Shown: positions 7,886 to 30,063 of the stretch, piece after piece
Numbering within the stretch: the stretch's first letter is position 1
Layout of the letters: each line of letters starts with the position of its first letter
Virus record (IMG/VR): IMGVR_UViG_3300035670_009931
Location: 1-64,000 of that record
Direction: 5' to 3' (one strand)
From: a virus
DNA length: 64,000 nucleotides
The notes under the pieces: generated by a model
The model's database searches: none
What the model was told of the DNA's origin: nothing
What the model saw: only the letters and a program-made list of their open reading frames with translations
Made by a program: the position numbers and the translations under genes

Positions 7886-8155
7886 TTAAAAACCCAATGG
7901 ACCTTTGGGTGGTTCAACTTCTATTTGTTTTGAACTTTGTTGTAATTGTTGTAGTAGCATAATAGCAGTATTTTTTACTGTGGGATCTGCACTCTTTGCT
8001 AATTCAACCAATGCCTGAACTTTAGCTGCTTCTGCGATAGTATTATCCCTAGATATTGATTTCTGTGCCTCTGCATATATAGAATAATTTGTTGCATCAG
8101 GAGATGCACATGCACTTAAAATTAATGCCAAAATTGTTAACATTGGTTTTTTCAC
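7886..8155 (-). CDS. Predicted lipoprotein
   Basis: Signal peptide with lipobox (LILSAC). Confidence 0.5.
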   Translation of the reverse strand: MKKPMLTILALILSACASPDATNYSIYAEAQKSISRDNTIAEAAKVQALVELAKSADPTVKNTAIMLLQQLQQSSKQIEVEPPKGPLGF

Positions 8156-8166
8156 TTTTTACCCTC

Positions 8167-8772
8167 TTATTTATTGCTTTGTAGTACTATCTTAGAAATG
8201 TGTTCAAGGCGTTCTATGTGTTCAAAAGCTCTCCATGGACTAGTATCTACCGCTACTACACCATGACGGTCCATACCAACAATATTATATTTTACTTTCC
8301 CTGTCACTGGATTGTAACCTAAATTTCTAATACACTCCGTGGCAAGTTCTTCAGTAATTGGCGGAATCAATGGAACATTTGGTGCTACACTAGTATACCT
8401 GCTTAACTCTGGAAATTCTTTAAGAAGATCCGGAAGTTGAATACCTGCATACATAGCAGCTACAGTATAAGTAGGATGTAGATGCAATACAACACGGACT
8501 TCTGTGTCGATGTTTTTTTGTAACCCATAATGCATTGGCAGTTCGCCACTTGGTTTTAATGCACTACTTATATCCGTATAAGGCAATTTTTTATTTTCTG
8601 CTAAATCCCATTTAACAAACATTTCAGGTTGCATTGTTTGTTTACGAATACCACTTGGAGTTACGTAAAAATGATTACGATCATGCCAACGGATACTAGC
8701 ATTACCATCTCTAGCTGTAATCCAATTACGTTTATATGCTTCTTGAAATAGTTCTGATATAGTCTCTAACAT
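8167..8772 (-). CDS. Class II aldolase/adducin-family protein (AraD/FucA-like)
   Basis: DGNASIRW...YVTPSG and LHLHPTY align with the conserved blocks of class II aldolase/epimerase. Confidence 0.55.
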   Translation of the reverse strand: MLETISELFQEAYKRNWITARDGNASIRWHDRNHFYVTPSGIRKQTMQPEMFVKWDLAENKKLPYTDISSALKPSGELPMHYGLQKNIDTEVRVVLHLHPTYTVAAMYAGIQLPDLLKEFPELSRYTSVAPNVPLIPPITEELATECIRNLGYNPVTGKVKYNIVGMDRHGVVAVDTSPWRAFEHIERLEHISKIVLQSNK

Positions 8773-8784
8773 TATTTTTACCTT

Positions 8785-9900
8785 TTATTTTACATATACA
8801 TCATTTATTTGTCTATTTACTCTTATAAATGTAGTGCATTTACTTAATTGCTTTAAGGATGCTGCACCAACATACGTGCAAGTACTACGCAGCCCACCCA
8901 ATAAATCTAATACAGTATCATTTACTTTTCCTCGATAAGGAATTTTTACAGTACGTCCTTCGCTACTACGATAACTTGCCACACCACCGTGATGTTTTTC
9001 CATAGCAGTGTCACTACTCATGCCATAAAATTCAACAAATTTTTTCCAGTCAACTTTATAGTTATGAATTTGTAAAACACCATTTTTATCAACTTCGCTA
9101 GTTAGGACTTCATTGGTTTTAAAATAATTTGTAATTACTTCCCCACCACCTTCATCATGACCAGCTAACATGCCTCCTAGCATTACAAAGTCAGCACCCG
9201 CACCAAAAGCTTTAGCAACATCACCAGGACAAGTACATCCACCGTCAGCCACAATATGACCACCAAGACCGTGAGCAGCATCGGCGCATTCAATAATAGC
9301 ACTAAGTTGTGGGTAACCTACGCCAGTGACGAGTCTCGTTGTGCATACCGATCCCGGCCCAACTCCGATTTTAACAATATCTGCGCCACGTAGTATTAAC
9401 TCCTGTGTCATATCTGCGGTAACAACATTACCGGCAATGATTGTATGTTTTGGGTATTGTTCTCGGACTTTAGCAACAAAATCTCCAAAATGTTCACTAT
9501 AACCGTTTGCTACATCGATACATATAAAATGTAATTCTGGATACGTATTTAGAATTTGCTGTAATCTAGACCAATCTTTATCACTAATTCCAGTACTAAC
9601 CGCACAGTAATCACCAAATTCAAAAATATTTTCAGTCGAGTGTTCAATGAACTTATCTAAGTCATAGCTTTTAACTAGGCAAGTAAATAGACGGTGTTGG
9701 TAAAGTTCTTTTGCCATATCAAAAGTACCAACACCGTCCATATTAGCTGCCATGATGGGAATGCCTGTCCATTCCCATTCACTATGTTTGAATTTATATG
9801 TCCTTGATAAATCTACTTCTTTACGACTAGATAATGTACTTCTTTTGGGACGTATTAAAACATCCTTGAAATCTAACTTAGTTTCGTCTTCGATTCTCAT
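8785..9900 (-). CDS. guaC: GMP reductase / IMP dehydrogenase-family enzyme (GuaC-like)
   Basis: The N-terminus [23 protein letters not shown] matches GuaC. The active-site loop [11 protein letters not shown] is present. There are no CBS domains, and the size (371 aa) fits GMP reductase. Confidence 0.7.
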
Positions 9901-9937
9901 GAATTTTATAAATTTTTAATTTTCAAACAAGTATTAA

Positions 9938-10072
9938 TTACTGGATTTCGTAATCTTCTTTACCGCAACCACATTCTGGACAAACAAAATCTTCGGGTAA
10001 TGTATTCCATGCACCTTCTAGATCGTCATCGTGGACATGGCCACATACTACACAAACATGTTGTTCACTCAT
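9938..10072 (-). CDS. Rubredoxin (44 aa; below the ORF-track size cutoff)
   Basis: Hand translation gives MSEQHVCVVCGHVHDD...FVCPECGCGKEDYEIQ with CxxC...CPxCG motifs. Its ATG overlaps the rubrerythrin stop (ATGA). Confidence 0.6.
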   Translation of the reverse strand: MSEQHVCVVCGHVHDDDLEGAWNTLPEDFVCPECGCGKEDYEIQ

Positions 10073-10521
10073 AGTTCAATCCCTTCTAGTTTACGCTTAT
10101 ATGCTTCTGCATGACGCTTTTCAACTTTTGCCAATGCGTCAAACCTCTTTTCTGCCTTCTTTAGAATTTCTAAAAATTCAGCAGCATGTGCTTGTGATTC
10201 ATTGATCTGCTCTGAAAATTCGCTTGCAGCACCATGCTTTTCGATGTTAGCTTGCTTTTCGAACTCAGGATACATTTCAGTGAATTCATAAGTCTCACCT
10301 TCAATTGCTTTTTCCAAGCATTCCTTTGTACTAGGCTTACCGATTAATAGTTCAAGATGACCCCAAGCATGAAGAATTTCTTGATCTGCGGTATGCTCAA
10401 AATGCTTTGCAATATCTTCAAATCCTTCTTCTCTTGCAATCCTTGCAAAATAACGGTATTTAATATGTGCCATGCTTTCTCCAGCAAGAGCACTTTCTAG
10501 ATTTTTTAATGTTACACTCAT
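10069..10521 (-). CDS. Rubrerythrin-like diiron (ferritin-like) protein
   Basis: ExxH diiron motifs (EGETYEF, EILHAWGHLE). The rubredoxin gene lies immediately downstream. Confidence 0.65.
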   Translation of the reverse strand: MSVTLKNLESALAGESMAHIKYRYFARIAREEGFEDIAKHFEHTADQEILHAWGHLELLIGKPSTKECLEKAIEGETYEFTEMYPEFEKQANIEKHGAASEFSEQINESQAHAAEFLEILKKAEKRFDALAKVEKRHAEAYKRKLEGIEL

Positions 10522-10688
10522 ATATTTCCTTTGTTAAGATTTTTTGCTTCTAATTCCCTAAGATCCATAGCCACATCGGCTACACCATGCCAATCTTGAA
10601 GTGCAACCATCACTTGAAGATATTCAAGTAAAATTTCTTTTTGCACATAAAAATCAGAATAGTCTTTATTTAAATATTCGTTATTCAT
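10518..10688 (-). CDS. Small hypothetical protein translationally coupled to rubrerythrin
   Basis: Hand-translated ORF of about 56 aa. Its TGA stop overlaps the rubrerythrin ATG. Confidence 0.35.
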   Translation of the reverse strand: MNNEYLNKDYSDFYVQKEILLEYLQVMVALQDWHGVADVAMDLRELEAKNLNKGNI

Positions 10689-10698
10689 AGTTTTTAAA

Positions 10699-11439
10699 TT
10701 AATAGTTTACTTTTTGCCATGTAGCACCATGAAACGGTGCTTTTTCATTTTCTGGTCTATCCGCTGTATAATAATACAATGCCAATGCAATCCTACTAAC
10801 ATTAGGAGGACAAACTAAAGGTATTGGATGACCATGATATGCATCATCTGTAATAGTAAAAATAACTGCTCTATTGAATATAGGTTTAACTTTTACTACA
10901 CAACGACTCAGATCCCTTTCCCATAATTCTAACTCACCGTTATATTCATCTTTCCAGTCTTCATTTAAATAAAGAAGCAGATTCAATCTTCTATGAAGAT
11001 TGTTTTTCCAATGAATATTGAAATCAGCATGTATATCTAATTTACCACCAGAATTTACTTTATGAATTCCACCACCCAACCAATCACTATCGGTTTGTAG
11101 GTTTTTAATGCCAGTTAAATTTTCTAGAAAATCTAACATTTCTCTAGAATGAAAATACTGTAATACGGTACTAGTAAATGGACAATTCTTTTCTAAAGAT
11201 TCCATCGACTGTTTGAATACATAATCATCTGGAGATGGAGTATAATATTTATTTACTTGTACTCCTGCTTCTTGTCCTTCAATATCGGTATACCAATCAG
11301 TATGATTTTTTATTTCTGACAAGACTAGCTTCATAATTTCTTCTGGAAAGAAATTATCAAGAACAATATGTGGAAATGGCTTTGCTTCCACATATTGTTT
11401 GTGTTTTAATTCAATATTATTTTTTGTATCTTTAAGCAT
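10699..11439 (-). CDS. 2OG-Fe(II) oxygenase-superfamily protein
   Basis: A HxD...H facial-triad-like pattern (LDIHADF ... YHGHPI) in a 246-aa ORF. Confidence 0.5.
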   Translation of the reverse strand: MLKDTKNNIELKHKQYVEAKPFPHIVLDNFFPEEIMKLVLSEIKNHTDWYTDIEGQEAGVQVNKYYTPSPDDYVFKQSMESLEKNCPFTSTVLQYFHSREMLDFLENLTGIKNLQTDSDWLGGGIHKVNSGGKLDIHADFNIHWKNNLHRRLNLLLYLNEDWKDEYNGELELWERDLSRCVVKVKPIFNRAVIFTITDDAYHGHPIPLVCPPNVSRIALALYYYTADRPENEKAPFHGATWQKVNY

Positions 11440-15491: not shown

Positions 15492-16436
15492 TTACCATAC
15501 AAAATTTTCTGAATAATATTGAACTATCTTTTTTAACTCTTTATCAAAATCTGCTTTTGGTATCCAACCTAATTTTTTTATTTTTGAATCATCTAATGCG
15601 TATCTCACATCACCACCTGGACGAGTAAGGTGTTCTATATATGGCCATGGATCTTTTTTACCATTATACAATTTGATTATTTTACTGACAACTTCTATAT
15701 TTGGACATTCAAAGTTTCCATTTATATTGTATATCTCATTCTTGGAATTACTTTTGATTATTGTTATAACAGCATTTGCAGTATCCGAAACATGTAGCCA
15801 ATTTCTTTTTGGTTTACCCTCATCATGTAATTGAATTTTTTTGTCAAGCATTAAATGCTTACAGGTTTTTGGTATTAGTTTTTCAACGTACTGACCAATT
15901 CCATAATTATTTGTTGGTCTAACAATTACGTATGGTAAGTTGAAAGTTCTTGCCCATGCAAGAATTAACATATCTGCTGCTGCTTTAGATGCAGAATATG
16001 GGTTACTTGGTTTTAATAAATCTAGTTCACTATGCTGACCAACTTCAATATCACCATAAACTTCGTCCGTTGAAAAATGAAGTATAGTTGGCATTTTGTA
16101 TATACTTTTTTGTTTGATCAATTCTAGAAGTTTATGCACACCATTGATATTAGATTTTAAAAATACATCGGATGAAACTATGCTGTTATCTACATGAGTC
16201 TCAGCCGCAGTATTAATAACATAGTCACAATCATATAATCTATCTAAATCATTTATATCTGATTTAATAAATTTAAATTGATCTCCATATATTTCCAAAT
16301 CTTTTAATAAATCTATATTAGCGGCATATGTAATTTTATCAACACCAATTACATACCAACCTTGGTCCAAACATTTTTTAGCAATATTAAAACCAATAAA
16401 CCCTAAACATCCAGTAACATACACTACTTTTTTCAT
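15492..16436 (-). CDS. NDP-sugar 4,6-dehydratase / NAD-dependent epimerase (SDR family)
   Basis: N-terminal GxxGxxG (VTGCLGFIGFNI) and catalytic YxxxK (YSASKAAAD). Confidence 0.7.
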   Translation of the reverse strand: MKKVVYVTGCLGFIGFNIAKKCLDQGWYVIGVDKITYAANIDLLKDLEIYGDQFKFIKSDINDLDRLYDCDYVINTAAETHVDNSIVSSDVFLKSNINGVHKLLELIKQKSIYKMPTILHFSTDEVYGDIEVGQHSELDLLKPSNPYSASKAAADMLILAWARTFNLPYVIVRPTNNYGIGQYVEKLIPKTCKHLMLDKKIQLHDEGKPKRNWLHVSDTANAVITIIKSNSKNEIYNINGNFECPNIEVVSKIIKLYNGKKDPWPYIEHLTRPGGDVRYALDDSKIKKLGWIPKADFDKELKKIVQYYSENFVW

Positions 16437-16444
16437 TTTTATCC

Positions 16445-17239
16445 TTAATTAAAATAATTTTTAATTCCAAAATTTAAACCTAATAAATTTATGTTTAAAT
16501 TATCTATCCGAGAACTATTTCCAGTATAATTTAATTTACTATCAGAATCAATAATAATTTCATTTTTTATACCATGAGTATTAACGAATGTTTTTAAAAA
16601 ATCACTGAGTTTAATTTTTTGAGAATATACACAATTAATGTCTTTTATATCAACATCATTTTCTATCACAAATTCCGTTATTTTGCATAAATCTTGTATA
16701 CTTATATAATCAAAAAATCTATCATTAGATAATTTAAAGGTATCATTAGTTGATAGTAACTTTGGAATCAACCTAGTGTTTTTTTCATTAGATCCAAAAC
16801 AACCAAAAATTCTTAAGGTCATCAAGTTATCTTTCTCATAACATAATCTACTCATCATGTTATGACCATATCCATAACTATCTTCTGGCAGTTTTACAAA
16901 TATGTCTACTTCTCTTGCATTCTCTATATTGGTTGTTCTATCAAATTCTGCACCAGACCCATAATGAATAAACTTACCAAACTTAGATGAATTATTATAA
17001 AAATTCATAAAAATGCTAAGATTGTTTCTAGTATCCACTAGTAATGGGTCTGAACTATATGAAACTGCTGTATTTAAAATGCAGTCAAAATAATTACTAG
17101 AAAGAAAATGTTTAACATCAACGTAATTATATAAGTCTAATCTCTCTCTAGTTACAGGTATTACATCAAACTTTTTAGACAAAAATTTTACCAAATGGTT
17201 ACCAATAAAACCATTAGATCCTAAAACAGCTATTTTCAT
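16445..17239 (-). CDS. NAD(P)-dependent sugar epimerase/reductase (SDR fold)
   Basis: N-terminal Rossmann motif VLGSNGFIGNHL. Confidence 0.55.
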   Translation of the reverse strand: MKIAVLGSNGFIGNHLVKFLSKKFDVIPVTRERLDLYNYVDVKHFLSSNYFDCILNTAVSYSSDPLLVDTRNNLSIFMNFYNNSSKFGKFIHYGSGAEFDRTTNIENAREVDIFVKLPEDSYGYGHNMMSRLCYEKDNLMTLRIFGCFGSNEKNTRLIPKLLSTNDTFKLSNDRFFDYISIQDLCKITEFVIENDVDIKDINCVYSQKIKLSDFLKTFVNTHGIKNEIIIDSDSKLNYTGNSSRIDNLNINLLGLNFGIKNYFN

Positions 17240-17985
17240 ATTTTCAAAAGTTCTTTAACGACAAGCTCATTTTCTAATTCAGCTTCATCAAGAAATGGTG
17301 TCATGTCGTGTAAACCAGCTTGTTTACCATTTTTTAATGCTTGAGCAGGTAAAATTTCTTGATCTTTTTTGCAACGACAATCTATGATACATGGGCCGGG
17401 TTTTTCTAGTATAATTGAAAATTTATTTAGATCATTAGCCAATCGCATATCTACAAAATCTATACCAAATGCAGTGGCAACGTTTTTAAAGGAGGGAAAC
17501 CATAAACCAGTTTCATTACTAGTCCCATACACTCTACCTTCAAAATACTTAGTTTGTGTATTTTTAATACTTAAATATCCATCATTGTTCAATATAACAA
17601 ATTTAATATTCAAATCATGTTGTTTGACTGTAGCAAGTTCTTGAATATTACTCATAAAACTACCATCACCTATGATACTAATGACTTGTTGGTTACTTGC
17701 CATACTGACACCAATAGATGCTGGGAGTGCCCATCCCATATCAGCCTGTGCTGGACTAAAAATAAAACGTTGACCTGTCTTAGCATTTAACGCTACTGGC
17801 CCTGCATAACTAATACTACCAGCATCACCCATCAGAATATCTTCAACCCTACTATGTTTATTAATAGCATCTAATACAGCGTAGATATTCAAATCGTAAT
17901 CTCTATTGTTTGCTTCGTATTCTGGTTGCATTACTGGCCATATATTTTTCCAGTGATTGCATTTATCAATCCAATCTTGATTCAT
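17236..17985 (-). CDS. TPP-dependent enzyme, C-terminal TPP-binding (PP) domain (acetolactate-synthase-like)
   Basis: GDGSF...N TPP-binding motif (IIGDGSFMSNIQEL). The ORF overlaps the upstream N-terminal ORF by 4 nt. Confidence 0.65.
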   Translation of the reverse strand: MNQDWIDKCNHWKNIWPVMQPEYEANNRDYDLNIYAVLDAINKHSRVEDILMGDAGSISYAGPVALNAKTGQRFIFSPAQADMGWALPASIGVSMASNQQVISIIGDGSFMSNIQELATVKQHDLNIKFVILNNDGYLSIKNTQTKYFEGRVYGTSNETGLWFPSFKNVATAFGIDFVDMRLANDLNKFSIILEKPGPCIIDCRCKKDQEILPAQALKNGKQAGLHDMTPFLDEAELENELVVKELLKI

Positions 17986-18995
17986 ACTAGCATTTCCTTA
18001 AAAAAATCTTTTAAATTGATATTATATTTTTCATGTATTTCAATTATATCTTTATTCAATTCATTTTTGTCTATGTCAATCATAATTTTATAACTGTATG
18101 GACTAAACTGTTTTGGATCATATCCTATTACGCTAGCTCCTAAACTGCTACCAAGAACTATCATTAGATCAGCGTTTTGCATGGCAAAATTTCCAGCCCT
18201 GCTACCTTTTATTCCTATTGCACCTATACTTAGGTTATGTGAATTTGCAGTATAATCTCTTGCACCATAAGTGCTTACATATGGTATGTTATATTTTTCT
18301 ATAAATTGTACAAATTCTTCCACTGTATTACTTTGTCGTATACCATAGCCTGCAATAATAATAGGACGAGTAGACCTTTCTATTGTTTTTTTAATTTTTG
18401 AAACATCATTATTAAATTCGTTATTAAAGCTAGGATGATATGTTCTGTATTTTGATGGCATTTGAGCAGTTTGTATATCACCTGGGATATCTACCCATAC
18501 TGGTCCAGGTCTATCACTTTGTGCAATATGAACTGCATATTGTATTGCATATACAACATCTTCAATGTTGTCAACAAAGCAACTAAATTTAGTCATAGAT
18601 GAATAAGTTTCAACAATATTATGTTCCTGAATTCCATATTTTCTAATATTAACGTTTTTAGTTCTATTAATATAATTGCTACATGTAGATAATCTAACGT
18701 TACCAGATAAAAATAGAACAGGTACACTATCTTGCCATGCATTAAGAACACTGGTGGCACAATTTGTACCAGCGCATCCTGTGGTAGGATTAACAACGGA
18801 AAGTTTTCCAGTAAATTTACTTTCACCTATTGCAGCATGACCAGCACTTTGTTCGTGATGATAACAAATATAGTTTATTTTTCCATTTTTAATAAACCCG
18901 TCATTCAATCCACTTGCGCCACCACCCATTAAACCATGAACATTTCTAATTCCTATATTGTACAGGTAGTCGGCTATCCAATCACATACTCTCAT
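17982..18995 (-). CDS. TPP-dependent enzyme, N-terminal Pyr plus central domains (partner of 17236-17985)
   Basis: Pyr-domain-like N-terminus. The two ORFs together total about 586 aa, the size of an ALS/YerE-type enzyme. Confidence 0.6.
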   Translation of the reverse strand: MRVCDWIADYLYNIGIRNVHGLMGGGASGLNDGFIKNGKINYICYHHEQSAGHAAIGESKFTGKLSVVNPTTGCAGTNCATSVLNAWQDSVPVLFLSGNVRLSTCSNYINRTKNVNIRKYGIQEHNIVETYSSMTKFSCFVDNIEDVVYAIQYAVHIAQSDRPGPVWVDIPGDIQTAQMPSKYRTYHPSFNNEFNNDVSKIKKTIERSTRPIIIAGYGIRQSNTVEEFVQFIEKYNIPYVSTYGARDYTANSHNLSIGAIGIKGSRAGNFAMQNADLMIVLGSSLGASVIGYDPKQFSPYSYKIMIDIDKNELNKDIIEIHEKYNINLKDFFKEMLV

Positions 18996-19008
18996 ATTAT
19001 CTCCGGTT

Positions 19009-20334
19009 TTATAAAAATAAACTCATGAAGTTATCAACTTTTTCTCCTATATATGATATCTGTTCAGGTGTTATCACTGGACTAGTTCCATGGAAAAAAG
19101 TATTTTTCATAACAAAAGTTGCCACTGGAAAATTATTTTTTGCATCTTCTGGATTCATCAAATGACTATATGCTGGTTGTAACATAATATTTCCAGCAAA
19201 ATATGGCCTAGTTTGTATGAGATTTGTTTCAAGATAATCGACCAAATCAAATCTAGAGAATGGCGCATTCTCCCTTATTGTCAAGGGGAACGCAAACCAA
19301 CTAGGATCACTTTTATTTTGTGCTGTCGGTAAATGAAAGAACTCTTCATACTTTTTATAGATATCTAAAAGCAAACTATAATTTCTTCTTCTTAATTGAT
19401 GAATGGTTGGCAACTTATCTATTTGAACTAGACCCATAGCCCCCTGCAATTCTATCGGTTTCAAATTAAATCCAATTTCATCATATACATACTTGTGATC
19501 AAAAATTTCATTTTTCATACAAGGTATCCATTCTGAGAAACGTTTACCGCATGTACCACACTGCAATTTATTTGCTTCTGGTCCAACACAGTAGCAACCT
19601 CGTCCCCATTCTCTAAATGACCTAGCGATAACTTCTAAATCATAAGTTTTGCAAGCAACAAAACCCCCCTCACCCATTGTCATATGATGTGCTGGATAAA
19701 AGCTACAGCTAGCCATTTCACCAAAACTACCTAAAGGTTTGCCATCATATGTGCTACCTAACGCATCACAGCAATCCTCTAGTAAAATTAAATTATACTT
19801 TTTAACCAATTCCATTACTTGATCCATATTTGGTGGATTTCCCAGTACATGAGCAAAAGTTATTACACGTATATTATGTTCTTTAATTAAATCTTCAGCT
19901 TTGGATAAATCTAAATTTAATGTATCTATTTCAATGTCCAAAAATACTGGTTCAAATCCCATTTGTAAAGTTGGGTTCAATGTAGTTGGAAATCCAGCTA
20001 TAGGCATTAAAACTTTAGTTCCTTTTGGTAAGTTATATCCTCGCTTTGATGTCAGGGTTGCCATCATAAGTAGGTTTGAACTAGATCCACTATTAGTTAA
20101 AATACCATGTTCTTTACCAAATTGTTTTGGGAACTCTTTTTCAAATTTTAAACATTTATCTCCCATAACCAACCAACCATCTAACATGGAAGATATAGAA
20201 GATACAAATTCATTTTCATCAAAATATGGACCGGCATAATTTACAAAATCTTTACCTGCTATCCATTTTTTATTTTGATTTTTATTTTTTATATATTCAT
20301 TAATATTTTGTAAAATTTGTTCTTTAGTTATCAT
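19009..20334 (-). CDS. DegT/DnrJ/EryC1-family PMP-dependent sugar 3-dehydrase (DdhC/RfbH E1-like)
   Basis: Fold-type I sugar aminotransferase core. The usual SF(Y/H)PTK lysine is replaced by His (SFYPAHHMT), as in E1 dehydrases. A cysteine cluster (CYCVGPEANKLQCGTCGKRFSEWIPC) could bind Fe-S. Confidence 0.6.
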   Translation of the reverse strand: MITKEQILQNINEYIKNKNQNKKWIAGKDFVNYAGPYFDENEFVSSISSMLDGWLVMGDKCLKFEKEFPKQFGKEHGILTNSGSSSNLLMMATLTSKRGYNLPKGTKVLMPIAGFPTTLNPTLQMGFEPVFLDIEIDTLNLDLSKAEDLIKEHNIRVITFAHVLGNPPNMDQVMELVKKYNLILLEDCCDALGSTYDGKPLGSFGEMASCSFYPAHHMTMGEGGFVACKTYDLEVIARSFREWGRGCYCVGPEANKLQCGTCGKRFSEWIPCMKNEIFDHKYVYDEIGFNLKPIELQGAMGLVQIDKLPTIHQLRRRNYSLLLDIYKKYEEFFHLPTAQNKSDPSWFAFPLTIRENAPFSRFDLVDYLETNLIQTRPYFAGNIMLQPAYSHLMNPEDAKNNFPVATFVMKNTFFHGTSPVITPEQISYIGEKVDNFMSLFL

Positions 20335-21176
20335 TCTTGAATTTGTCCTTTCATAGTATTATACACTACTTTTAAACGATCTCCAAACCTGTCCCATGCA
20401 ACAGTATCTTCTTCATTATTAAGGTTTTGTTGATGCCAAAATTCATCAGTAATATATGCACCGGGATCTGTAGGTTTTCTATCTGCTTGTTGACCAACTA
20501 CTTGTTTAACTGTTTTAAAGAATTCCCAACTCTTAGAGTAATAATGATGTATTCGTAATTTATCATGACTTATTGCACTGCATGGATAATTTAATCCTTG
20601 GGTTATTAATCTACCTTCAACATCATATGTTCCATATTCAGTACCTAAACAATGACCATCTTTTCTTACCCAAATATTACCTGCATTTGGACCTCCCCGT
20701 AAAATTGATTTTATATGATGATTTAGTTTATGATTTAACGGTGCTCTTTTTGTAAAACATTCTGTAACTAAGCTAGGTTCCCAACTTATATGCCCATTAT
20801 TACCAAACATTGTCCAGTAAATACCCAGACAACTCAAACGTAAATTCATGTAATTTACTAAGAAATCTTTAATATTATGGTGTTGTATGGGTACATAGAA
20901 CTCATCTGCATCTGCACTGATTATCCAATCAAATTCTCCACTAGCACGATGCTGAAATACATACTCCCAATACCTATTACCAGCATCATTGCCTATAACT
21001 TGCATGGGTCTTATATCATAAAACTTTGATAATTTTTTTATAATATCAAAACTTGAATCAGTGCTCATATGATCATATACTAGAAATGTATCCACTCCTA
21101 ACATATGATACCATGCAAACCATTCTATTAAATGTCTTGAATTATTTCGTTGTATTAAACTTACTGCAATTTTCAT
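20331..21176 (-). CDS. Glycosyltransferase (GT92/DUF23-like)
   Basis: Pattern HLIEWFAWYHMLGVDTFLVYDHMSTD resembles the GT92 signature. Assignment by recall only. Confidence 0.45.
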   Translation of the reverse strand: MKIAVSLIQRNNSRHLIEWFAWYHMLGVDTFLVYDHMSTDSSFDIIKKLSKFYDIRPMQVIGNDAGNRYWEYVFQHRASGEFDWIISADADEFYVPIQHHNIKDFLVNYMNLRLSCLGIYWTMFGNNGHISWEPSLVTECFTKRAPLNHKLNHHIKSILRGGPNAGNIWVRKDGHCLGTEYGTYDVEGRLITQGLNYPCSAISHDKLRIHHYYSKSWEFFKTVKQVVGQQADRKPTDPGAYITDEFWHQQNLNNEEDTVAWDRFGDRLKVVYNTMKGQIQE

Positions 21177-21179
21177 ATA

Positions 21180-21833
21180 TTATCTTATAATAAATTGTGA
21201 ATAATAATCAAATGCTTTTAATCTAAAATTTAGATCAGTTGCTGGCCATTGTATTACAAAATCACCTAGTGACCAATCACCAACTGTTCCCAATTTATCA
21301 ATAAGTGGCTCCGGATAACGACCTCTATACAATGAATAATTGTATGAATTCATTACCTTTTGAGGAACTAATTTGACTAAATCATTTTTATATTTTTCAT
21401 ATGTATCTTTCATAATACCCTGTTCACCTTCCCAATTGGTATATGTCGGTAAAGTTTCAGCTATCATGTTTAGATAATCTCTACCTTCGGGCGAATTTCT
21501 AAGTAGAAAACTATCAGAGTTGATACCATTAAAATCTGATGCAATAATTAAATGATAATTTGTATCAGCTATATCTTCTAATTTTATTTTAAAATTGGTG
21601 ATCATTAAATCACCACCTGTCCACCATATCCAAGAATCATTTTCAATCTTACTAATAACATCTTGTAAAATTTGTATCTTAGCAATTTGGGCTGAACGCA
21701 TATCATTCCACGTAATCAATCTTAAATCATGATTGTATCCATGTAAATTACAATATGGAACTTTATTATTGTGCCAAGTTTTATCCATTAATGGCTGATA
21801 TGTACTATCATAATAACTAACTAATGTAAACAT
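21180..21833 (-). CDS. Hypothetical protein, possible glycosyltransferase
   Basis: 217-aa ORF located inside the glycan cluster. Confidence 0.35.
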   Translation of the reverse strand: MFTLVSYYDSTYQPLMDKTWHNNKVPYCNLHGYNHDLRLITWNDMRSAQIAKIQILQDVISKIENDSWIWWTGGDLMITNFKIKLEDIADTNYHLIIASDFNGINSDSFLLRNSPEGRDYLNMIAETLPTYTNWEGEQGIMKDTYEKYKNDLVKLVPQKVMNSYNYSLYRGRYPEPLIDKLGTVGDWSLGDFVIQWPATDLNFRLKAFDYYSQFIIR

Positions 21834-22768: not shown

Positions 22769-24067
22769 TTATTGTTTTGTTATTAATTTAATTAAATTAT
22801 TGGCAATTTCTTCAATCACGTTTACTGTTACTGAATTACCAAATAGATCAAAAATTTCTTCTGTTGTTAAGTGATTCGTTTTATATGTTAAAGGAAATCC
22901 AAATAATTTTTTAAGCTCGGAATGACTAAGTTTTCTTAGACCAGTATTTTCAATTACCCCCAAACGAGTTGAATCCGTAGCAACTACAGTTGGAATAATA
23001 TTATTATCATCAATTATTTTACTAAATTCAAAACTTAATTTACCAGTTGTTAATGTGTATCCCATTGGTAAATCAGTCCTTTTTATTTTTGTTTTAACAT
23101 TATTAATTATTTTATAGTCTTTTAAATATTCTTGTTTTAGATAACCTTTTTCAGTTAGTGCATTTAAATCATTTTCTAAATTTTCATAATCCATAAATGT
23201 TTTAATTTGATTTAAAGAAAGAGGAATCCCATCGAACCAAGATGTACCATTTTCTACGGACCATTTTTTATTTCTTCTTTTTACTATTAAAGAATTAATT
23301 AGTTCTTTTTGTTTTGGTGTGATTGATCCTTTTATACCCAAATCCCAACTATGAATATTATTATCTCCACCTCTTTTGTCATTAATTGATTTACCAGCTA
23401 ATAAATTTAGATTATTAAATGATGATTTTAAAAGAAAATTTAATTTACTATTTGGTGTTTCTAAGTTATAATCTCTAATATCTTTAAAAGTAACAGCTTT
23501 AAAATTTGTACTAAAATCAAATATATTTTGTAAATTTAGATTTAAATCTTTTCTAACTCCAGCAATATAAATTCTTTTTCTCCCTTGAGCTAGCCCAAAA
23601 TTTTTAGAATTTAATAATTTCCATGAAAAATCATATCCTATTTGATCAAGTATTGCCAATATCGTAGATAAAGTATTTCCTTTATTATGGTTTATTAAGC
23701 CTTCTACATTTTCCAAAATAAAACATTTTGGTTTTATATCATTGAGGATTCTTGCAACTTCAAAAAATAATGTACCCCTAGTGTCTTCAAACCCCAAACG
23801 TTTTCCAGCAGATGAAAACGCTTGGCAAGGGAATCCAGCCAATAAAAAATCAAATGAACCTAATTCAGATGTATTAATTTTTCTAACATCTTCAATATTT
23901 GATTTTTCAAAATTAAGTTGGTATGTTTCTATTGCTGATTTTTTTATATCAGATGATAGTATACATTCACCAATTAAATTATTTCTTGACAGTGCTTGTT
24001 GAAGTCCTAGTCTAAATCCACCTATTCCACAAAATAAATCTATAAATTTTATTTTTTCATTAATCAT
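22769..24067 (-). CDS. dcm: DNA (cytosine-5)-methyltransferase
   Basis: Motif I FCGIGG, motif IV GFPCQAFS, motif VI ENV and motif X GNSVTV are all present. Confidence 0.8.
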   Translation of the reverse strand: MINEKIKFIDLFCGIGGFRLGLQQALSRNNLIGECILSSDIKKSAIETYQLNFEKSNIEDVRKINTSELGSFDFLLAGFPCQAFSSAGKRLGFEDTRGTLFFEVARILNDIKPKCFILENVEGLINHNKGNTLSTILAILDQIGYDFSWKLLNSKNFGLAQGRKRIYIAGVRKDLNLNLQNIFDFSTNFKAVTFKDIRDYNLETPNSKLNFLLKSSFNNLNLLAGKSINDKRGGDNNIHSWDLGIKGSITPKQKELINSLIVKRRNKKWSVENGTSWFDGIPLSLNQIKTFMDYENLENDLNALTEKGYLKQEYLKDYKIINNVKTKIKRTDLPMGYTLTTGKLSFEFSKIIDDNNIIPTVVATDSTRLGVIENTGLRKLSHSELKKLFGFPLTYKTNHLTTEEIFDLFGNSVTVNVIEEIANNLIKLITKQ

Positions 24068-24095: not shown

Positions 24096-25319
24096 TTATT
24101 TTGAAATTAGCTTAAAATACGGACAAGGTAAAACCAAAGTACCACCACCATTTAGATATTCTTGTTCTCTCATTTCAAATTCGTTAATAAAATGCCAAGG
24201 CAGTACCAAAGCATATTCCGGTTTTGCTTTTCGCATTTCTTCCTCGCTAACTATTGGTATCATTGTTCCAACAGTTTTTAGTCCAAACTTATATGGACTT
24301 CTTTCAGCAATGGCATCTATACAAGTACTATCTAAACCAAAGTGTTGTAATAATGTATTACCTTTTGTACTTGCACCATATCCATAAATTTTCTTATTTT
24401 CTTTTTTGGCCTTATTAACAAAATCAACTACTTGAGTTTTTAATAGTTCTAATTTTTTACCAAAATCTTCCCATACCTCAACATCACGAATATTACATAC
24501 ATTCTTCTCATATGCTAAAATACTTTCGATTCTAACATTGCATACATCTCTTAGTGGTGCTGTTCCAAAACTATTAATATTGGCGTTTTTCTTTTGAATA
24601 TAAATTCTAAAGCTACCACCATTTGTATCATTTAAACTACAATCTACTATCTTGAATCCATGTGATTCAAATAAGTTTTTTATACTGGTTAAATCATAAT
24701 AATAAACATGTTCATGACATATATTATCGAATGCTAATTGTTTAACCATTAGTGGTGTATAGCTCATTTGTAAAACTAATAATCCATCATTATCCAATAC
24801 TTTATACAAATCTTTAATAAATGGATTAGGATCATCTAAATCATAGAACATCGCAATGCAGGTAATTACTTTTGCGGTGTCTGTTTTTGATGTTATTTTT
24901 TGCCAAGCTTTTAATGAAAAATAGTCTTGTGCAACCGTTGCTACTTTACTACTTTCAGCATAGTATGAATTATCACATGGATCTATACCATATTTTTTCA
25001 TAGTATCTGGTACAGATTTTAACAAAGTACCATCATTACAGGCTATATCTAGCCACTTATCACCTGGATTTAATTTTACTCTTGAACTTATTTCTGATAC
25101 TATACTTTGTAGTTCTTTAGTCATACTAGCGTTAATACCACTTCTGTACCAGTATTGCCCCCACATTGATTCAGCGGGAGCAACTTCTTTTAGTCTTACA
25201 GCCCCAATTTTTTTGTCTAGGTAAAGATCTAAACTATATTTTTTTCTTTTCTTCATGTCGTCTTTTGATTTAATAAAATCACTGACGTAATACTTCCCCA
25301 AAGCTAATACTTTTTTCAT
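24096..25319 (-). CDS. SAM-dependent methyltransferase (sugar C-methyltransferase-like architecture)
   Basis: Class I MTase motif (LDIACNDG) plus a C-terminal domain of the kind found in NDP-sugar C-methyltransferases. Confidence 0.5.
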   Translation of the reverse strand: MKKVLALGKYYVSDFIKSKDDMKKRKKYSLDLYLDKKIGAVRLKEVAPAESMWGQYWYRSGINASMTKELQSIVSEISSRVKLNPGDKWLDIACNDGTLLKSVPDTMKKYGIDPCDNSYYAESSKVATVAQDYFSLKAWQKITSKTDTAKVITCIAMFYDLDDPNPFIKDLYKVLDNDGLLVLQMSYTPLMVKQLAFDNICHEHVYYYDLTSIKNLFESHGFKIVDCSLNDTNGGSFRIYIQKKNANINSFGTAPLRDVCNVRIESILAYEKNVCNIRDVEVWEDFGKKLELLKTQVVDFVNKAKKENKKIYGYGASTKGNTLLQHFGLDSTCIDAIAERSPYKFGLKTVGTMIPIVSEEEMRKAKPEYALVLPWHFINEFEMREQEYLNGGGTLVLPCPYFKLISK

Positions 25320-25339
25320 TTTTTTCCTTGTTATTGGTT

Positions 25340-26008
25340 TTATGATATTTGAAATAAATCGTACACTAGAAAATATCTAGGGTCACTATTTTTTAAACTT
25401 TTTTCTTTGATAGTATTGATAATATTCCTATCAACTAAATCTGGATGAACCCACCAATCTTCGTATGGTGAAATTTGATTGGGTATATAACATGTTAGTA
25501 CATCCCCTGCAACTAGTTCATAACCTAAAGTAGATAAAATTTTTCTACTTTCATTTCTAGCATAATCACCTTCAGCATAAAAATCAGTTTCATATGTTAT
25601 AGTTCTAAATTTAAATTTATCAAATGGAATTCTTTTTAATGCTGATAATGTGTTAATACTTGGTTCAATATCTAATTGAAGATAATCAATTATATTTCTT
25701 GTAGGAAAATAATACGATAATAATTTTTCATAATCTGTATTTAATGCATCAGTAGCTAAAAAAGTTGTATTTGGTCTGTGAAATTTCCACTCATTTGCAT
25801 ATTCCTCAAATAAATCAATTGAAACACCTGACCAATTGAATACAGATTCTAAATTATAAGTATTATTATTATTGATTGGTAAGTGACATCCTATTTCCAA
25901 AAAAGTTCCATTTTTCATACCATTAGTTGCAGTCATTACAAATATATCCTGCATATCCAATGAATATGATTTTTTAACTAATTCACTGTTGTTAAAGTTA
26001 TATTTCAT
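25340..26008 (-). CDS. Hypothetical protein, possible FkbM-type methyltransferase
   Basis: 222 aa. Contains a G-x-G-like LEIGCH segment. Weak. Confidence 0.3.
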   Translation of the reverse strand: MKYNFNNSELVKKSYSLDMQDIFVMTATNGMKNGTFLEIGCHLPINNNNTYNLESVFNWSGVSIDLFEEYANEWKFHRPNTTFLATDALNTDYEKLLSYYFPTRNIIDYLQLDIEPSINTLSALKRIPFDKFKFRTITYETDFYAEGDYARNESRKILSTLGYELVAGDVLTCYIPNQISPYEDWWVHPDLVDRNIINTIKEKSLKNSDPRYFLVYDLFQIS

Positions 26009-26024
26009 ATATTAGTTGTTTAAT

Positions 26025-26414
26025 TTAATTAGTGTGTGACTTTTCTTCAACTATTTCAGAATTATATTTTAAATTGACATTTTTCTTTATAGTGCTACGT
26101 AAATCGTTTGAAATATATATTTGTTTTGCAATTTTTGCAACTTTAATATAATCAGTCGTATAGTATAGTTCTAGTCCTATTTTACGTATTTCATTTTCTA
26201 AATCCCAAATTTTTAAATTTACTTCATAAAGTTCATCATAAAAATCTACAATATCTGGATCTAAAGACAATGAATCATATGTATTTTTTAAACTCATATA
26301 TTCATATCTTACATTTTTTAATTTTTCATCATCAGTTATTTTACTAGATTTGATTTCAAGAATAGTAAGCTTATCTACTAATTCCCCTATGCTTACTGGT
26401 ATACTAATATTCAT
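26025..26414 (-). CDS. Hypothetical protein
   Basis: 129-aa ORF. Confidence 0.4.
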   Translation of the reverse strand: MNISIPVSIGELVDKLTILEIKSSKITDDEKLKNVRYEYMSLKNTYDSLSLDPDIVDFYDELYEVNLKIWDLENEIRKIGLELYYTTDYIKVAKIAKQIYISNDLRSTIKKNVNLKYNSEIVEEKSHTN

Positions 26415-26415
26415 A

Positions 26416-27423
26416 TTAAATACTCTTTTTCATCTCAGTAGAACACATATCATTTACAATATCATACAGATTCATTTTTGGTTCCCATCCTAAAACTTCT
26501 TTAGCTTTAGAATAATCTCCTAATAATGTATTGACATCGGCTGGTCTATAAAATTTCGGATCTATTTCTATTAAAGTTTTTCCAGAATTGCTATCTATAC
26601 CACGTTCATTTAAATCAGTACCAACCCACTCTAATTTTATGCCATGCCACTGTGCAGTAAGATCACAAAATTCTCTTACTGAATATTGTTTACCAGTGGC
26701 TAACACAAAGTCATCTGGACTATGATGTTGTAGTATCATCCATATACCTTCAACAAAATCCTTTGCATGACCCCAATCTCTTTTAGCGTCAATGTTACCA
26801 AGTTTAATGGAAGATTGTTTACCGGCTATGATATCATTAAATCCTTTTGTAATTTTTCTTGTTACAAAAGCTTCGCCACGTCTAGGACTTTCATGATTAT
26901 AAAGAATACCAGTACTTGCAAAAAGATTATAGCTTTCTCTGTAATTTACAGTAATCCAATGTCCAAATAATTTAGAAACACCGTATGGGCTTCTTGGATA
27001 AAATGGAGTGCTTTCATTTTGAGGAATAGTTTGAACTAATCCAAAGAGTTCACTGGTAGATGCTTGATAAAATTTTATAGTTTTATACTGTTTTATAGCT
27101 TCAAGTAATCTTAAAACACCTAAAGCATCAGTTTCAGCCGTATATTCAGGTACTTCGAAGCTTACATGAACATGGCTTTGTGCAGCCAAATTATAAACCT
27201 CATCGGGACAAACTTCTTCTATGATATTCCTGATGTTTAAATTATCAGTTAAATCACCATAATGAAGTTTTATCTGATCACGTATATGAGTGATATTTGG
27301 TATTACTTCATAACTAGAATTTCGTCTAATTAATCCGTGAACTTTATAGCCTTTTGATAGTAATAGTTCTGCTAGATAAGAACCATCTTGTCCGGATATA
27401 CCGGTAATTAATGCAGTTTTCAT
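26416..27423 (-). CDS. gmd: GDP-mannose 4,6-dehydratase
   Basis: N-terminus [34 protein letters not shown] and a catalytic YxxxK (YGVSK) match Gmd. Confidence 0.85.
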
Positions 27424-27546: not shown

Positions 27547-30063
27547 TTATTGTCCTTCTGATACATTCTGATTCATCTTGTGCAACTTATCAAGTTCATC
27601 AGTAAATGCTTTTCCTGCTAGTTTTATATTACCAGTATCTTTCATAACGTTATATGCAACATCAATTACATCTAACATTTGTTCATTTGATGGAGTCCAT
27701 CCACTAACAGCATTTTTCAAAAATCGCATGATTGATGGAAGCGTTGTTATAAGATATTGTTTATATGCTTCTGGATCTTTTTTTGGATCACCTGTATTTT
27801 CTGTAAAACTTTCACTTGTCTTTTTTTTACTGTTGTCGTCTATATCAGAATCTGGTACAATTTTTGCAGGTATAGATTTTATATCTGCTATTTTATGTGC
27901 CCAAAATCTGTGATGACCATCTAATACTTGATAACCTTTTCTATATTTGCGTACTAAAATAGCGGGGAGTTTATCCCCTTTCTTTAGTTTTGTTACCATT
28001 CTTTTAATCTTAGTTTTGCTTTCCGTTTGATGCATCTTTTTACTAGGTTCAAAAGTAGTAAGTTTATCAATCGGTATATTAATTGTTGGTAACTTATCAA
28101 ATCCGGTATCATCTACATCTGCACCATAATATTCAGGATCGGTGTATAGTTTTATTTTACCTTCCGCCACACCTTGCTTCAATCTTGCACTTTGTAATTC
28201 ACCACTAGTAATATACTTTACCGGTAATGATTTTATGTTTGAGTCAACCGCTTTAGCCAATCTATGAAGACCATCAATTACAGTCAATTTACCATTGTTG
28301 CTTTTTGTAATCACAACAGGAACTGATATATCGGCATTTTTTAATCTGGTTATATCCGGTTCATCATATGCTAATACCCATGCCAATTTACTTACTGAAC
28401 ATTGTTTAGTTGGCTTAGTTTCTGCCATAGCCAAAACTTTATCAAAATCATATTCTACTCCGTCATGGGTAATTGATCCGCCCTCTTTATATGAGCCTTC
28501 CGTCAAACCTTTTTGTTTTGATTTCTTTGCTTTATCTAAATAATATTTTCGTAGTTCTAAATCTTTTTTTGTTGGTGTGCGAACTAAATCAAGATGTCTA
28601 TCTACCGGTTCTTCTATTATATTTTCATCGGGAACATGAATTGATTTTATGTGAGGTAGACTTGAAAATTCGTTATTATTACCGCCCGGTTCCCACATAT
28701 CTTTACCATTCTTGTCATATCTAGGCAATTTATGTAAATAGACATTTTCACCGTGTCTTAGTTTACCATTAAATAAAATCAATTGATCTTTTTGGTCGAA
28801 CATACCGGTATCAGATCCATCGGTTGTCATTCCCATTTTTATTGCAGTATTCTTATCAGCAGTTGCATATATAGCAAATCTATTACTACCTTCTTCTCCA
28901 CCAGTATCATGTGCTTGTTTAGGAACTAATACGTTAATTCTATGTTTTGAACCATGCCACAAGTATTTTTGTTTATCAGCTTGTTCACTTACTTTTTTTT
29001 TACAACTACCAGGTTTTCCTGCTGGAACACCACGTACTCTGGTATAACCGGGCCAACATTTTAATTCGTCTAACTTATCAGATTCATTGTTAGCTATCAT
29101 TTTTTCCAGCATATTGGAAGGAGTATCTTCATCACCTGCAATATATTCTATAAAATTTTCATGACGATCTTCTAATCCTTTTAGACCAGAATTTATTGTT
29201 CTTGTAACTTCAGTAGTATTTTTAAAATCAGAAACTTTTGGTTTTACACGTGCTCCCCAGTACCACAAAGCAATTTGTGCTGCAATATCTGGATCTTCTG
29301 CTAATTGTGGATTGTTTATTAAATCTTTGCCAATAGCTTTACCTGCAATTCGATAATTATATCTACCTGTTAATTGTATAAATCCACGACCTTTAAATCG
29401 TATACCATCACCAATTTTTGTGTTACCCAATCTTTTTGCTCTGTCAGGTGAATATTTTGGGTCATATCTCTTGAAATAATTTTTACCACCCTGTTCTGCT
29501 AAACGTGAAAAATCTCTAGTTTCATGGGCACATTGTGCCATAAATTGTGCAAGTTCATATCCACTTAAACCTGCTTTTTTTGCATAATTCATCAAGAATT
29601 TTTCTCTTGGGCTACTAGTTATATAATTAACAGTTGGTTGTTTAGTAGCAACTGGTTTAGCTTGTTGAGTAGCTGGTGCAGTATTAGGTGCAGTAGCTGT
29701 TGCAACCGGTTGATTTTGTTTTGGACCTGTCAATGCTTGTTTGGCGGTCATCACACCAGTAGAACCAAGTGCCACTGCACCAGCTAATCCTAAACCAAAT
29801 AATTGGTCACGCCAACCTTCTTCTAAATCATCTGAATAAAATTCATTTAATTTATTCTGTGAAACAAGTTCATTATATTTTTTTCTTGATATATACCAAG
29901 TTCCAGTTGAGGATTTTTTAAATCCAAGATCAGTCAATTGACGATCACTATAACTGCCTTTTAGTTGGCCGGGTTTTAAAAATACAATATCTTTGTATTT
30001 GTTATCTTCTGTAATATTAAATTCTGAAAAACGCATCTTGTATTTATAATTTTTTAAATACAA
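27547..30063 (-). CDS. Multidomain protein: GH19 lysozyme/chitinase-like domain plus two ParB-like nuclease (ParBc) domains
   Basis: GH19 block FKGRGFIQLTGRYNY. Two ParBc-like motifs near the C-terminus (VIDGLHRLAKAV; VLDGHHRFWAHKI). 838 aa. Confidence 0.55.
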   Translation of the reverse strand: MYLKNYKYKMRFSEFNITEDNKYKDIVFLKPGQLKGSYSDRQLTDLGFKKSSTGTWYISRKKYNELVSQNKLNEFYSDDLEEGWRDQLFGLGLAGAVALGSTGVMTAKQALTGPKQNQPVATATAPNTAPATQQAKPVATKQPTVNYITSSPREKFLMNYAKKAGLSGYELAQFMAQCAHETRDFSRLAEQGGKNYFKRYDPKYSPDRAKRLGNTKIGDGIRFKGRGFIQLTGRYNYRIAGKAIGKDLINNPQLAEDPDIAAQIALWYWGARVKPKVSDFKNTTEVTRTINSGLKGLEDRHENFIEYIAGDEDTPSNMLEKMIANNESDKLDELKCWPGYTRVRGVPAGKPGSCKKKVSEQADKQKYLWHGSKHRINVLVPKQAHDTGGEEGSNRFAIYATADKNTAIKMGMTTDGSDTGMFDQKDQLILFNGKLRHGENVYLHKLPRYDKNGKDMWEPGGNNNEFSSLPHIKSIHVPDENIIEEPVDRHLDLVRTPTKKDLELRKYYLDKAKKSKQKGLTEGSYKEGGSITHDGVEYDFDKVLAMAETKPTKQCSVSKLAWVLAYDEPDITRLKNADISVPVVITKSNNGKLTVIDGLHRLAKAVDSNIKSLPVKYITSGELQSARLKQGVAEGKIKLYTDPEYYGADVDDTGFDKLPTINIPIDKLTTFEPSKKMHQTESKTKIKRMVTKLKKGDKLPAILVRKYRKGYQVLDGHHRFWAHKIADIKSIPAKIVPDSDIDDNSKKKTSESFTENTGDPKKDPEAYKQYLITTLPSIMRFLKNAVSGWTPSNEQMLDVIDVAYNVMKDTGNIKLAGKAFTDELDKLHKMNQNVSEGQ

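Follow-up and report, generated by a model that had tools for sequence, protein, structure and literature searches.

The attachment of carbon branches to sugars by thiamin diphosphate (ThDP)-dependent enzymes is rare and has been described for a few bacterial O-antigens and antibiotics. In the biosynthesis of yersiniose A in Yersinia pseudotuberculosis O:VI, which involves DdhA/B/C/D (equivalent to AscA-D), YerE and YerF, a 4,6-dehydratase is followed by a 3-dehydrase (E1), a ThDP-dependent enzyme that branches the sugar at C4, and a reductase. Here we describe a five-gene cassette encoding enzymes of the same order, located at positions 15492-20334 of a 64,000-nucleotide stretch of viral DNA (positions 1 to 64,000 of IMG/VR record IMGVR_UViG_3300035670_009931), hereafter the window. 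The most likely product of the cassette, in nucleotide-activated form, is a yersiniose-type 3,6-dideoxy-4-C-branched hexose, a reading to which we assign a probability of about 0.62.

YerE transfers an activated form of acetaldehyde onto 3,6-dideoxy-4-keto-glucose linked to cytidine diphosphate (CDP), and the YerE-like enzymes, two of which have been solved (JanthE and PpYerE), are described as the only subclass of the decarboxylase family of ThDP enzymes to use isolated ketones (PMC12247030, PMC9306805). The physiological substrate of JanthE is unknown (PMC12188165). Acetyl branches are also attached to keto-sugars by a second, two-subunit class of ThDP enzyme, represented in antibiotic pathways by AviB1/AviB2, Pau11/Pau12 and KbDH-alpha/beta. 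These are of the alpha-keto acid dehydrogenase-2 type, being homologues of the alpha and beta subunits of the E1 component of pyruvate dehydrogenase (PDH) (PMC4753412, PMC12247030), and are not homologous to the enzyme of the window.

Several features separate the phage cassette from the yersiniose A pathway. Its dehydratase is of the RmlB type, whereas that of Yersinia is of the CDP-glucose type; a cytidylyltransferase is missing from its vicinity, as is E3 (DdhD/AscD), the reductase that serves E1; its ThDP enzyme consists of two polypeptides; its reductase carries a Y-x3-H motif; and its setting is a T4-like phage. The chemistry is already known from yersiniose, and what is new is the phage setting, the split enzyme, the E1 without an E3 and the exchange of one class of branching enzyme for another. 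No relevant report of virus-encoded ThDP-dependent sugar branching was found in the literature searched (phage yersiniose, 3-dehydrase, acetolactate synthase).

Organization of the cassette

Five open reading frames (ORFs) fill positions 15492-20334. All are on the minus strand, are read from 20334 towards 15492, and were recovered where they had first been placed. In the assignments below, NDP stands for nucleoside diphosphate and SDR for short-chain dehydrogenase/reductase.

19009..20334, minus strand: predicted E1/DdhC/RfbH-type 3-dehydrase of NDP-4-keto-6-deoxyhexose, dependent on pyridoxamine 5'-phosphate (PMP) and [2Fe-2S]; 441 residues (RfbH equivalog, PDB 3bcx)
17982..18995, minus strand: YerE-like ThDP enzyme subunit 1, PYR and middle (TH3) domains; 337 residues (Pfam TPP_enzyme_N, TPP_enzyme_M)
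17236..17985, minus strand: YerE-like ThDP enzyme subunit 2, PP (diphosphate-binding) domain; 249 residues (Pfam TPP_enzyme_C)
16445..17239, minus strand: divergent extended SDR with an NDP-sugar reductase fold, putative side-chain (YerF-like) ketoreductase; 264 residues (weak Pfam Epimerase, RmlD_sub_bind)
15492..16436, minus strand: RmlB-type NDP-glucose 4,6-dehydratase; 314 residues (TIGR01181, PDB 2hun)

Overlaps of 4 nucleotides join the stop of a preceding 281-residue glycosyltransferase gene to the start of E1, ThDP subunit 1 to subunit 2 (as ATGA), and ThDP subunit 2 to the start of the SDR gene; the other gaps within the cassette are 13 and 8 nucleotides. The five ORFs apparently form a phage-borne, translationally coupled unit.

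The 3-dehydrase

The 441-residue ORF is of the DegT family. It had been assigned in an earlier note to the E1 group, rather than to the aminotransferases, on the strength of a His replacing the catalytic Lys in the motif SFYPAHH and of a cluster of cysteines. Both signatures have been borne out. The first His of the motif, H216, aligns with His220 of Yersinia E1, and it is precisely in this column that PDB entry 3bb8, the H220K mutant of the Yersinia enzyme, differs, reading 'sfypakh'. All four ligand cysteines of the [2Fe-2S] cluster are present, spaced C189-x57-C247-x1-C249-x12-C262. The spacing in Yersinia E1 is C-x57-C-x1-C-x7-C, and its last Cys aligns with C262, the longer final interval in the window being due to an insertion of five residues that carries an extra cysteine, C259. 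The His and the four ligand cysteines are kept in every full-length viral E1 that adjoins ThDP genes. The extra C259 is variable: it is replaced in one locus (L082) and absent from a second viral subclade, 35-38% identical, which has the exact x7 spacing of the Yersinia enzyme.

Comparison with family models leads to the same assignment. The NCBIfam RfbH equivalog NF011936 matches the ORF with 451.5 bits, above its cutoff of 423, compared with at most 143 bits for models of aminotransferases, of which the next best is PseC (143 bits against a cutoff of 423.5). In a search of the PDB, Yersinia E1 (3bcx) was the best match at 336 bits, followed by ColD at 190, with aminotransferases reaching at most 118. 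The ORF thus does not group with the Lys-type aminotransferases, and its cysteine cluster is a conserved feature of its viral homologues. Together, the scores, the match to His220 and the conservation of the ligand cysteines support its identification as a PMP-dependent dehydrase of the E1/DdhC/RfbH type, predicted to bind an iron-sulfur cluster.

A second DegT paralogue of about 390 residues occurs in five of the related loci considered below (L052 646-1842, L060 3754-4923, L063 2602-3762, L064 2889-4088 and L078 3794-4975). It has the His-His motif SFYFGHHM, lacks the cysteine cluster and resembles ColD, and these loci also carry a dehydratase for guanosine diphosphate (GDP)-mannose. Judged by these motifs, some of the phages may also make a sugar of the colitose type.

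A YerE-like enzyme made of two proteins

The PYR, TH3 and PP domains of the ThDP enzyme are spread over two adjacent ORFs. The catalytic Glu, E48 of the N-terminal half (in HHEQ), is invariant, and the ThDP-binding motif GDG-x24-NN, which runs from G106 to N134 of subunit 2, is conserved at G106-D-G and at N133-N134. When a profile built from 13 viral sequences was run against the PDB, the best matches of the N half were JanthE (8rph, 214 bits) and PpYerE (5ahk, 208.7), followed by IlvB, which is acetohydroxyacid synthase (AHAS) I of Escherichia coli, at 188. The corresponding scores in a profile search with the C half were 188.9 for JanthE, 107.5 for IlvB and 97.9 for PpYerE. The lead over AHAS is accordingly modest in the N half, where it is shared by JanthE and PpYerE, and large for JanthE in the C half, where the alignment with JanthE extends through the C-terminal tail and includes a stretch, NNDGYL(S/M)IK(N/H)TQ, that differs from AHAS. 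In common with JanthE and PpYerE, the phage halves have the domain order PYR-TH3-PP and the catalytic Glu, and the likeness extends to the C-terminal tail and to the NNDGYL.IK.TQ stretch. They differ in that YerE-like lyases are single polypeptides of about 560-620 residues, JanthE and PpYerE being chains of 588-619, whereas the phage enzyme is divided into 337 and 249, and in that the canonical GDG of the phage enzyme is replaced by CDG in JanthE. A YerE-like assignment is supported by these comparisons, as the earlier note had predicted, but the single protein resembling acetolactate synthase that it described has to give way to a conserved two-subunit form.

The division of the enzyme was followed through related viral loci. 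When IMG/VR was scanned with the N half, 99 viral contigs matched, of which 80, at 50-77% identity, were kept. An identical break and frame offset is seen in 78 of the 80, the gene being fused only in the two most distant (L080 and L081), where the break falls in a short linker and no residues are missing. Among 40 distinct junctions, 39 have the ATGA overlap, in which the ATG of subunit 2 lies on the TGA of subunit 1, and 34 have a GGAG/AGGA-type site 8-12 nucleotides before the start of subunit 2; in the window, a Shine-Dalgarno-like AAGGAA lies 8 nucleotides before that ATG. Contigs of three other samples, assembled separately and encoding an identical E1 protein, give the same two-gene call. 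The best 120 database homologues of the N half are all of 314-342 residues and contain the two N-terminal domains only, and the best 150 representatives of the C half at 50% identity include 28 of standalone size and 73 fusions. The split into two proteins is therefore genuine.

Two other explanations of the split were considered and rejected. Sequencing or assembly error is ruled out by its recurrence in 78 of the 80 loci and on the separately assembled contigs of other samples. A programmed -1 frameshift at the run of T residues before the stop of subunit 1 was rejected because the -1 frame meets TAA/TAG immediately and because subunit 2 has an ATG and a Shine-Dalgarno-like site of its own.

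The same observations bear on a quite different account of these genes, namely that they encode an acetolactate synthase, as an auxiliary gene of branched-chain amino acid synthesis, or represent a decaying, frameshifted copy. Homologues of the enzyme are automatically annotated as acetolactate synthase large subunits, its best tblastn matches among cultured organisms are IlvB proteins at about 31% identity, and the gene does lie in two frames. Searches of phage and plasmid records with the N half by tblastn likewise returned IlvB-type matches alone, at about 30% identity (at most about 31% among phage records), with no YerE/YerF context. The equivalog models of AHAS, however, remain far under their cutoffs (188 bits at best against 970), and neither an AHAS small subunit nor other ilv genes were seen in the gene block. 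Decay is difficult to reconcile with a conserved break, which 78 of the 80 loci keep along with intact motifs, a Shine-Dalgarno-like site and a start codon, and which reappears on separately assembled contigs. With the -1 frame closed immediately, read-through is neither needed nor possible. Also at odds with an acetolactate synthase is the result of a scan, with two signature motifs, of 185,579 bacterial and archaeal species genomes (one per species), in which only two relatives appeared: a 2.3-kb contig of a metagenome-assembled genome (58% identity) and one weak match (32%). We regard this account of the ThDP genes as very improbable.

The scan is also a sign that this clade of ThDP enzymes is nearly absent from cellular genomes, within the limits set by the two peptide patterns used. 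Since the clade is found in viral contigs and almost absent from the species genomes, phages may be a main reservoir of this type of enzyme.

Exchange of the putative branching enzyme among related loci

In all 80 loci the ThDP genes share their strand with E1, which lies mostly directly upstream of them or one gene away. An orthologue of the RmlB-like gene (at least 55% identity) is found in 64 and the small SDR in 43. Around this core, a class I/II aminotransferase lies between the E1 and ThDP genes in 36 loci (e.g. L032 8835-10004), and an FkbM-type methyltransferase follows the ThDP genes in 32 (e.g. L005 11755-12438). The varying presence of these two genes indicates that tailoring steps vary around a constant core, and points either to variants of the branched sugar with amino or methyl groups or to the supply of a different 2-oxo acid donor.

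The most informative relative is a locus (L088) in which the E1 protein is 85% identical to that of the window and the stretch bounded by the GDP-mannose dehydratase and RmlB-like genes is syntenic, the flanking proteins being 49-85% identical. Its slot between E1 and the SDR (7721-8884) contains no YerE-like genes. It is occupied instead by a 206-residue E1_dh protein, of the PDH E1 alpha family, and a 178-residue Transket_pyr protein resembling E1 beta. E1, this PDH-E1-like pair, an SDR and the RmlB-like gene also occur together in twenty further viral loci (L089-L108), in most of them in the order given. Both proteins of the pair, which is absent from the window, are far smaller than usual E1 alpha and beta subunits. 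They fall into the class to which AviB1/AviB2, Pau11/Pau12 and KbDH belong, and the presence of two unrelated classes of ThDP branching enzyme in one slot is strong evidence, from comparison of sequences and gene order, that the predicted role of the slot is the acyl branching of the product of E1. The cassette is present in at least 100 viral contigs, from uncultured aquatic phages, 99 matching the YerE-like form and 20 having the PDH-E1-like form. This natural exchange of two non-homologous enzymes offers strong comparative evidence for function, as well as a ready pair for enzymology.

The SDR seems to follow the exchange. That of the L088 locus is only 41% identical to its counterpart in the window, compared with about 80% for neighbouring proteins, as would be expected if each SDR were suited to its ThDP branching enzyme and changed together with it.

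The dehydratase and the nucleotide

The earlier note had also recognized two NAD-dependent SDR enzymes downstream of the ThDP genes, a 4,6-dehydratase and a reductase or epimerase, and Pfam and family models confirm that both are real. The 314-residue dehydratase, clearly related to RmlB, contains the motifs STDEVYG, with the catalytic T-D-E, and YSASK. It is matched by TIGR01181, the model of the deoxythymidine diphosphate (dTDP) type, with 304 bits, under the equivalog cutoff of 365, and by TIGR02622, the model of the CDP type, with 67 bits against a cutoff of 278; its best matches in the PDB are all dTDP-glucose 4,6-dehydratases, led by 2hun at 242 bits. Because the enzyme comes closest to the dTDP-glucose type and is far from the CDP-glucose type, dTDP is more likely than CDP to be the nucleotide of the cassette, UDP being another candidate. 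The CDP-linked sugar originally proposed finds no support in these scores, and no cytidylyltransferase is found in the window. A further candidate substrate, GDP-mannose by way of the GDP-mannose 4,6-dehydratase (GMD) encoded upstream, is unlikely, GMD being present in 15 of the 80 loci as compared with 64 for the adjacent RmlB-like gene.

A proposed pathway and the evidence against it

The assignments given above can be placed in a pathway of five steps. What the sequences show are the enzyme families, their catalytic motifs, the linkage of the genes, the two-ORF enzyme and its exchange for the other class; substrates and products, nucleotide, donor acid, source of electrons, function of the SDR and acceptor are inferred. 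The RmlB-like dehydratase would convert NDP-glucose supplied by the host, most likely as the dTDP form, to NDP-4-keto-6-deoxyglucose. The E1-type enzyme, with PMP and its [2Fe-2S] cluster, would then remove the 3-hydroxyl group to give NDP-4-keto-3,6-dideoxyglucose. The two-subunit YerE-like enzyme would decarboxylate a 2-oxo acid and transfer the acyl unit to C4, giving a tertiary alcohol; failing other indications the donor may be taken to be pyruvate, in which case the branch would be acetyl. Reduction of the side-chain carbonyl, as carried out by YerF, would probably fall to the divergent SDR, and the adjacent glycosyltransferases would transfer the finished sugar to an acceptor.

A number of observations weigh against a yersiniose-type product. 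The identity of the N half to JanthE is 29%, not above that to IlvB (about 31%, by tblastn), so that the YerE-like assignment rests on the profile scores, on the C half and on gene context. The SDR lacks the canonical Lys of the YxxxK motif, having Y-x3-H (Y-G-Y-G-H) with Met at +7, and its fold is closest to those of C4-reductases. The aminotransferase and FkbM genes of the relatives imply that products differ among phages. In one relative (L109), E1 and the RmlB-like gene occur without a ThDP enzyme, which indicates that the dehydratase-E1 pair moves independently of the branching step. Finally, no nucleotidyltransferase, ferredoxin, flavodoxin, ferredoxin reductase of the FNR type or AscD-like E3 was found in the 64 kb, where the larger ORFs were compared with Pfam and all ORFs of at least 50 residues were searched for motifs. 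E3 and the cytidylyltransferase, for which the earlier note had proposed to look elsewhere in the genome, were thus not found in the window. The plant-type ferredoxin motif typical of E3 was absent within 10 kb of the 80 loci, two small ORFs being judged spurious, and nucleotidyltransferase-like genes were present in only eight of the 80, none of the glucose-1-phosphate type and six of them fused to a phosphatase domain of the HAD type.

The lack of E3 and of a nucleotidyltransferase implies that the host, or phage genes at a distance, must supply NDP-glucose and reducing power; since no E3 lies nearby, the electrons for the second step would be provided by a ferredoxin or flavodoxin reductase system, either of the host or distantly encoded. 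There is a precedent for such an arrangement. SpnQ of spinosyn biosynthesis, an E1 homologue with an iron-sulfur motif that acts on thymidine diphosphate (TDP)-4-keto-2,6-dideoxyglucose, is not known to have a dedicated E3 and relies instead on general cellular ferredoxin or flavodoxin reductases. The likeness to the phage E1 lies in the use of a TDP-sugar without a dedicated E3, as we infer for the phage enzyme; SpnQ differs in its substrate and in being part of an antibiotic pathway of Gram-positive bacteria.

As regards the SDR, the altered motif has the appearance of relocation of the catalytic base rather than of decay. The protein retains the Rossmann motif GSNGFIG, and Tyr122 is invariant in its subfamily, 98 of 120 members of which have Gln at +4 together with Lys or Arg at +7 (the Y-x3-Q-x2-K type), while His takes the +4 position in members whose +7 residue is not basic, so that the two positions of the catalytic helix covary. 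On this pattern of residues, the enzyme looks like a putative reductase with a displaced base. Its AlphaFold model has a mean confidence score (pLDDT) of 95.9, and the nearest folds are those of NDP-sugar C4-reductases and GDP-fucose synthase, at template-modelling (TM) scores of 0.8-0.85.

This structural affinity opens the way to a simpler proposal, in which the SDR is a C4-ketoreductase, the product is an unbranched 3,6-dideoxyhexose of the abequose or paratose type, and the ThDP enzyme has nothing to do with sugars. The L109 locus would fit such a scheme, as would the E1-like genes of cyanophages that are unaccompanied by ThDP enzymes. T4-like cyanophages such as Synechococcus phage S-H68 possess nucleotide-sugar islands, or lipopolysaccharide ('LPS') islands, that likewise contain 4,6-dehydratases, epimerases and glycosyltransferases; S-H68 has an annotated CDP-4-dehydro-6-deoxyglucose 3-dehydratase, 42% identical to the E1 of the window, with no ThDP enzyme in about 8 kb on either side. 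Yet the ThDP genes of the window lie between E1 and the SDR, E1 accompanies them in all 80 loci, and the slot they occupy is filled in relatives by the other class of sugar-branching ThDP enzyme. Moreover, reduction at C4 and addition of an acyl unit at C4 would compete for a single carbonyl. An unbranched product is therefore, in our judgement, improbable.

The L109 locus itself is on a 55-kb contig, where E1, 81% identical to that of the window, directly follows the RmlB-like dehydratase (8982-11323). The same contig encodes a very large protein with a ubiquitin-E1 domain, a superoxide dismutase, UvdE and a Bax-inhibitor protein.

A further alternative concerns the identity of the donor. The same enzymes acting with a 2-oxo acid other than pyruvate would attach a longer or functionalized acyl group, giving a sugar like erwiniose or caryophyllose, or one not yet described. 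Among the YerE-like enzymes, ErwE does not take pyruvate, and 2-oxo acids from C3 to C6 are substrates of JanthE, the solved enzyme nearest to that of the window (PMC12247030, PMC9306805); in addition, the aminotransferase found between the E1 and ThDP genes in 36 loci is a possible supplier of such an acid. Set against this, the cassette of the window has no aldolase or aminotransferase within it, the class II aldolase at 8167-8772, about 6.7 kb past its end, is of a type unlike the ErwI pyruvate aldolase, and a preference for pyruvate is reported for the class of the PDH-E1-like enzymes that take the place of the YerE-like pair in relatives (PMC12247030). A donor other than pyruvate is judged unlikely, and a yersiniose-type product remains the preferred reading.

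A wider conjecture, which we offer as tentative and would rate as doubtful in its full extent, is that aquatic T4-like phages possess a phage-specific pathway to an undescribed branched sugar. It would combine a heteromeric YerE-like carboligase, interchangeable with a miniature PDH-E1-like enzyme, with an E1 working without a dedicated E3 and an SDR whose catalytic base has been relocated, and its product would be placed on the virion or on a target made by the phage, and not on host LPS.

Phage setting and possible uses of the sugar

The window derives from a T4-like phage with a G+C content of about 32%. In addition to the cassette it encodes a virion protein family of the cyanomyovirus type, a baseplate-type protein, ribonucleotide reductase (RNR), DNA ligase, heme oxygenase and a bilin reductase, and a T4-type clamp loader, sliding clamp and helicase are found on related contigs. 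A search of phage records at the DNA level gave short RmlB matches only, from which it follows that there is no close cultured relative. Two glycosyltransferase genes stand immediately before E1:

21833..21180, minus strand: GT34-like glycosyltransferase, directly upstream of the cassette; 217 residues (Pfam)
21176..20331, minus strand: GT2_4/GT92-like glycosyltransferase, between the GT34-like gene and E1; 281 residues (Pfam)

In the syntenic L088 locus E1 is likewise preceded by this pair of genes, at 66% and 78% identity, and both enzymes are candidate transferases for the product of the cassette. Flippase, polymerase and lipid-carrier priming genes were not seen near the cassette, and glycosylation of virion proteins is as possible a use of the sugar as remodelling of the host surface. 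If the branched dideoxy sugar is made, it would provide a distinctive marker for the targets of 'LPS-like' phage gene islands, and the split YerE-like enzyme would be a new scaffold for the production of chiral tertiary alcohols by biocatalysis.

Other features of the window

The gene block upstream of the cassette contains a further set of sugar genes on the minus strand at 24096-27423, comprising a GDP-mannose 4,6-dehydratase (TIGR01472, 490 bits, above the cutoff), a DUF6165 protein, a 222-residue protein without assignment and a 407-residue protein resembling NDP-hexose C-methyltransferases (Methyltransf_14). These family matches suggest a second pathway, leading to a putative GDP-linked C-methyl deoxysugar. 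Amid the glycosylation genes, at 22769-24067 (minus strand), is a C5-cytosine DNA methyltransferase (Pfam DNA_methylase, 291 bits).

The large subunit of RNR (38235-42151, minus strand) appears to be interrupted, being represented by a 751-residue ORF with a terminal match to intein splicing domains, a 399-residue ORF without a family match and a 179-residue ORF that matches the last part of the RNR barrel only; an inserted intein or homing element may account for this, or the gene may be split. At 27547-30063 (minus strand), an 838-residue protein has both a ParB N-terminal domain and a domain of the GH19 chitinase/endolysin type. The heme oxygenase gene adjoins that of the bilin reductase, which is of the ferredoxin-dependent type (2705-3914, minus strand), and the two are auxiliary genes typical of cyanophage-like aquatic myoviruses.

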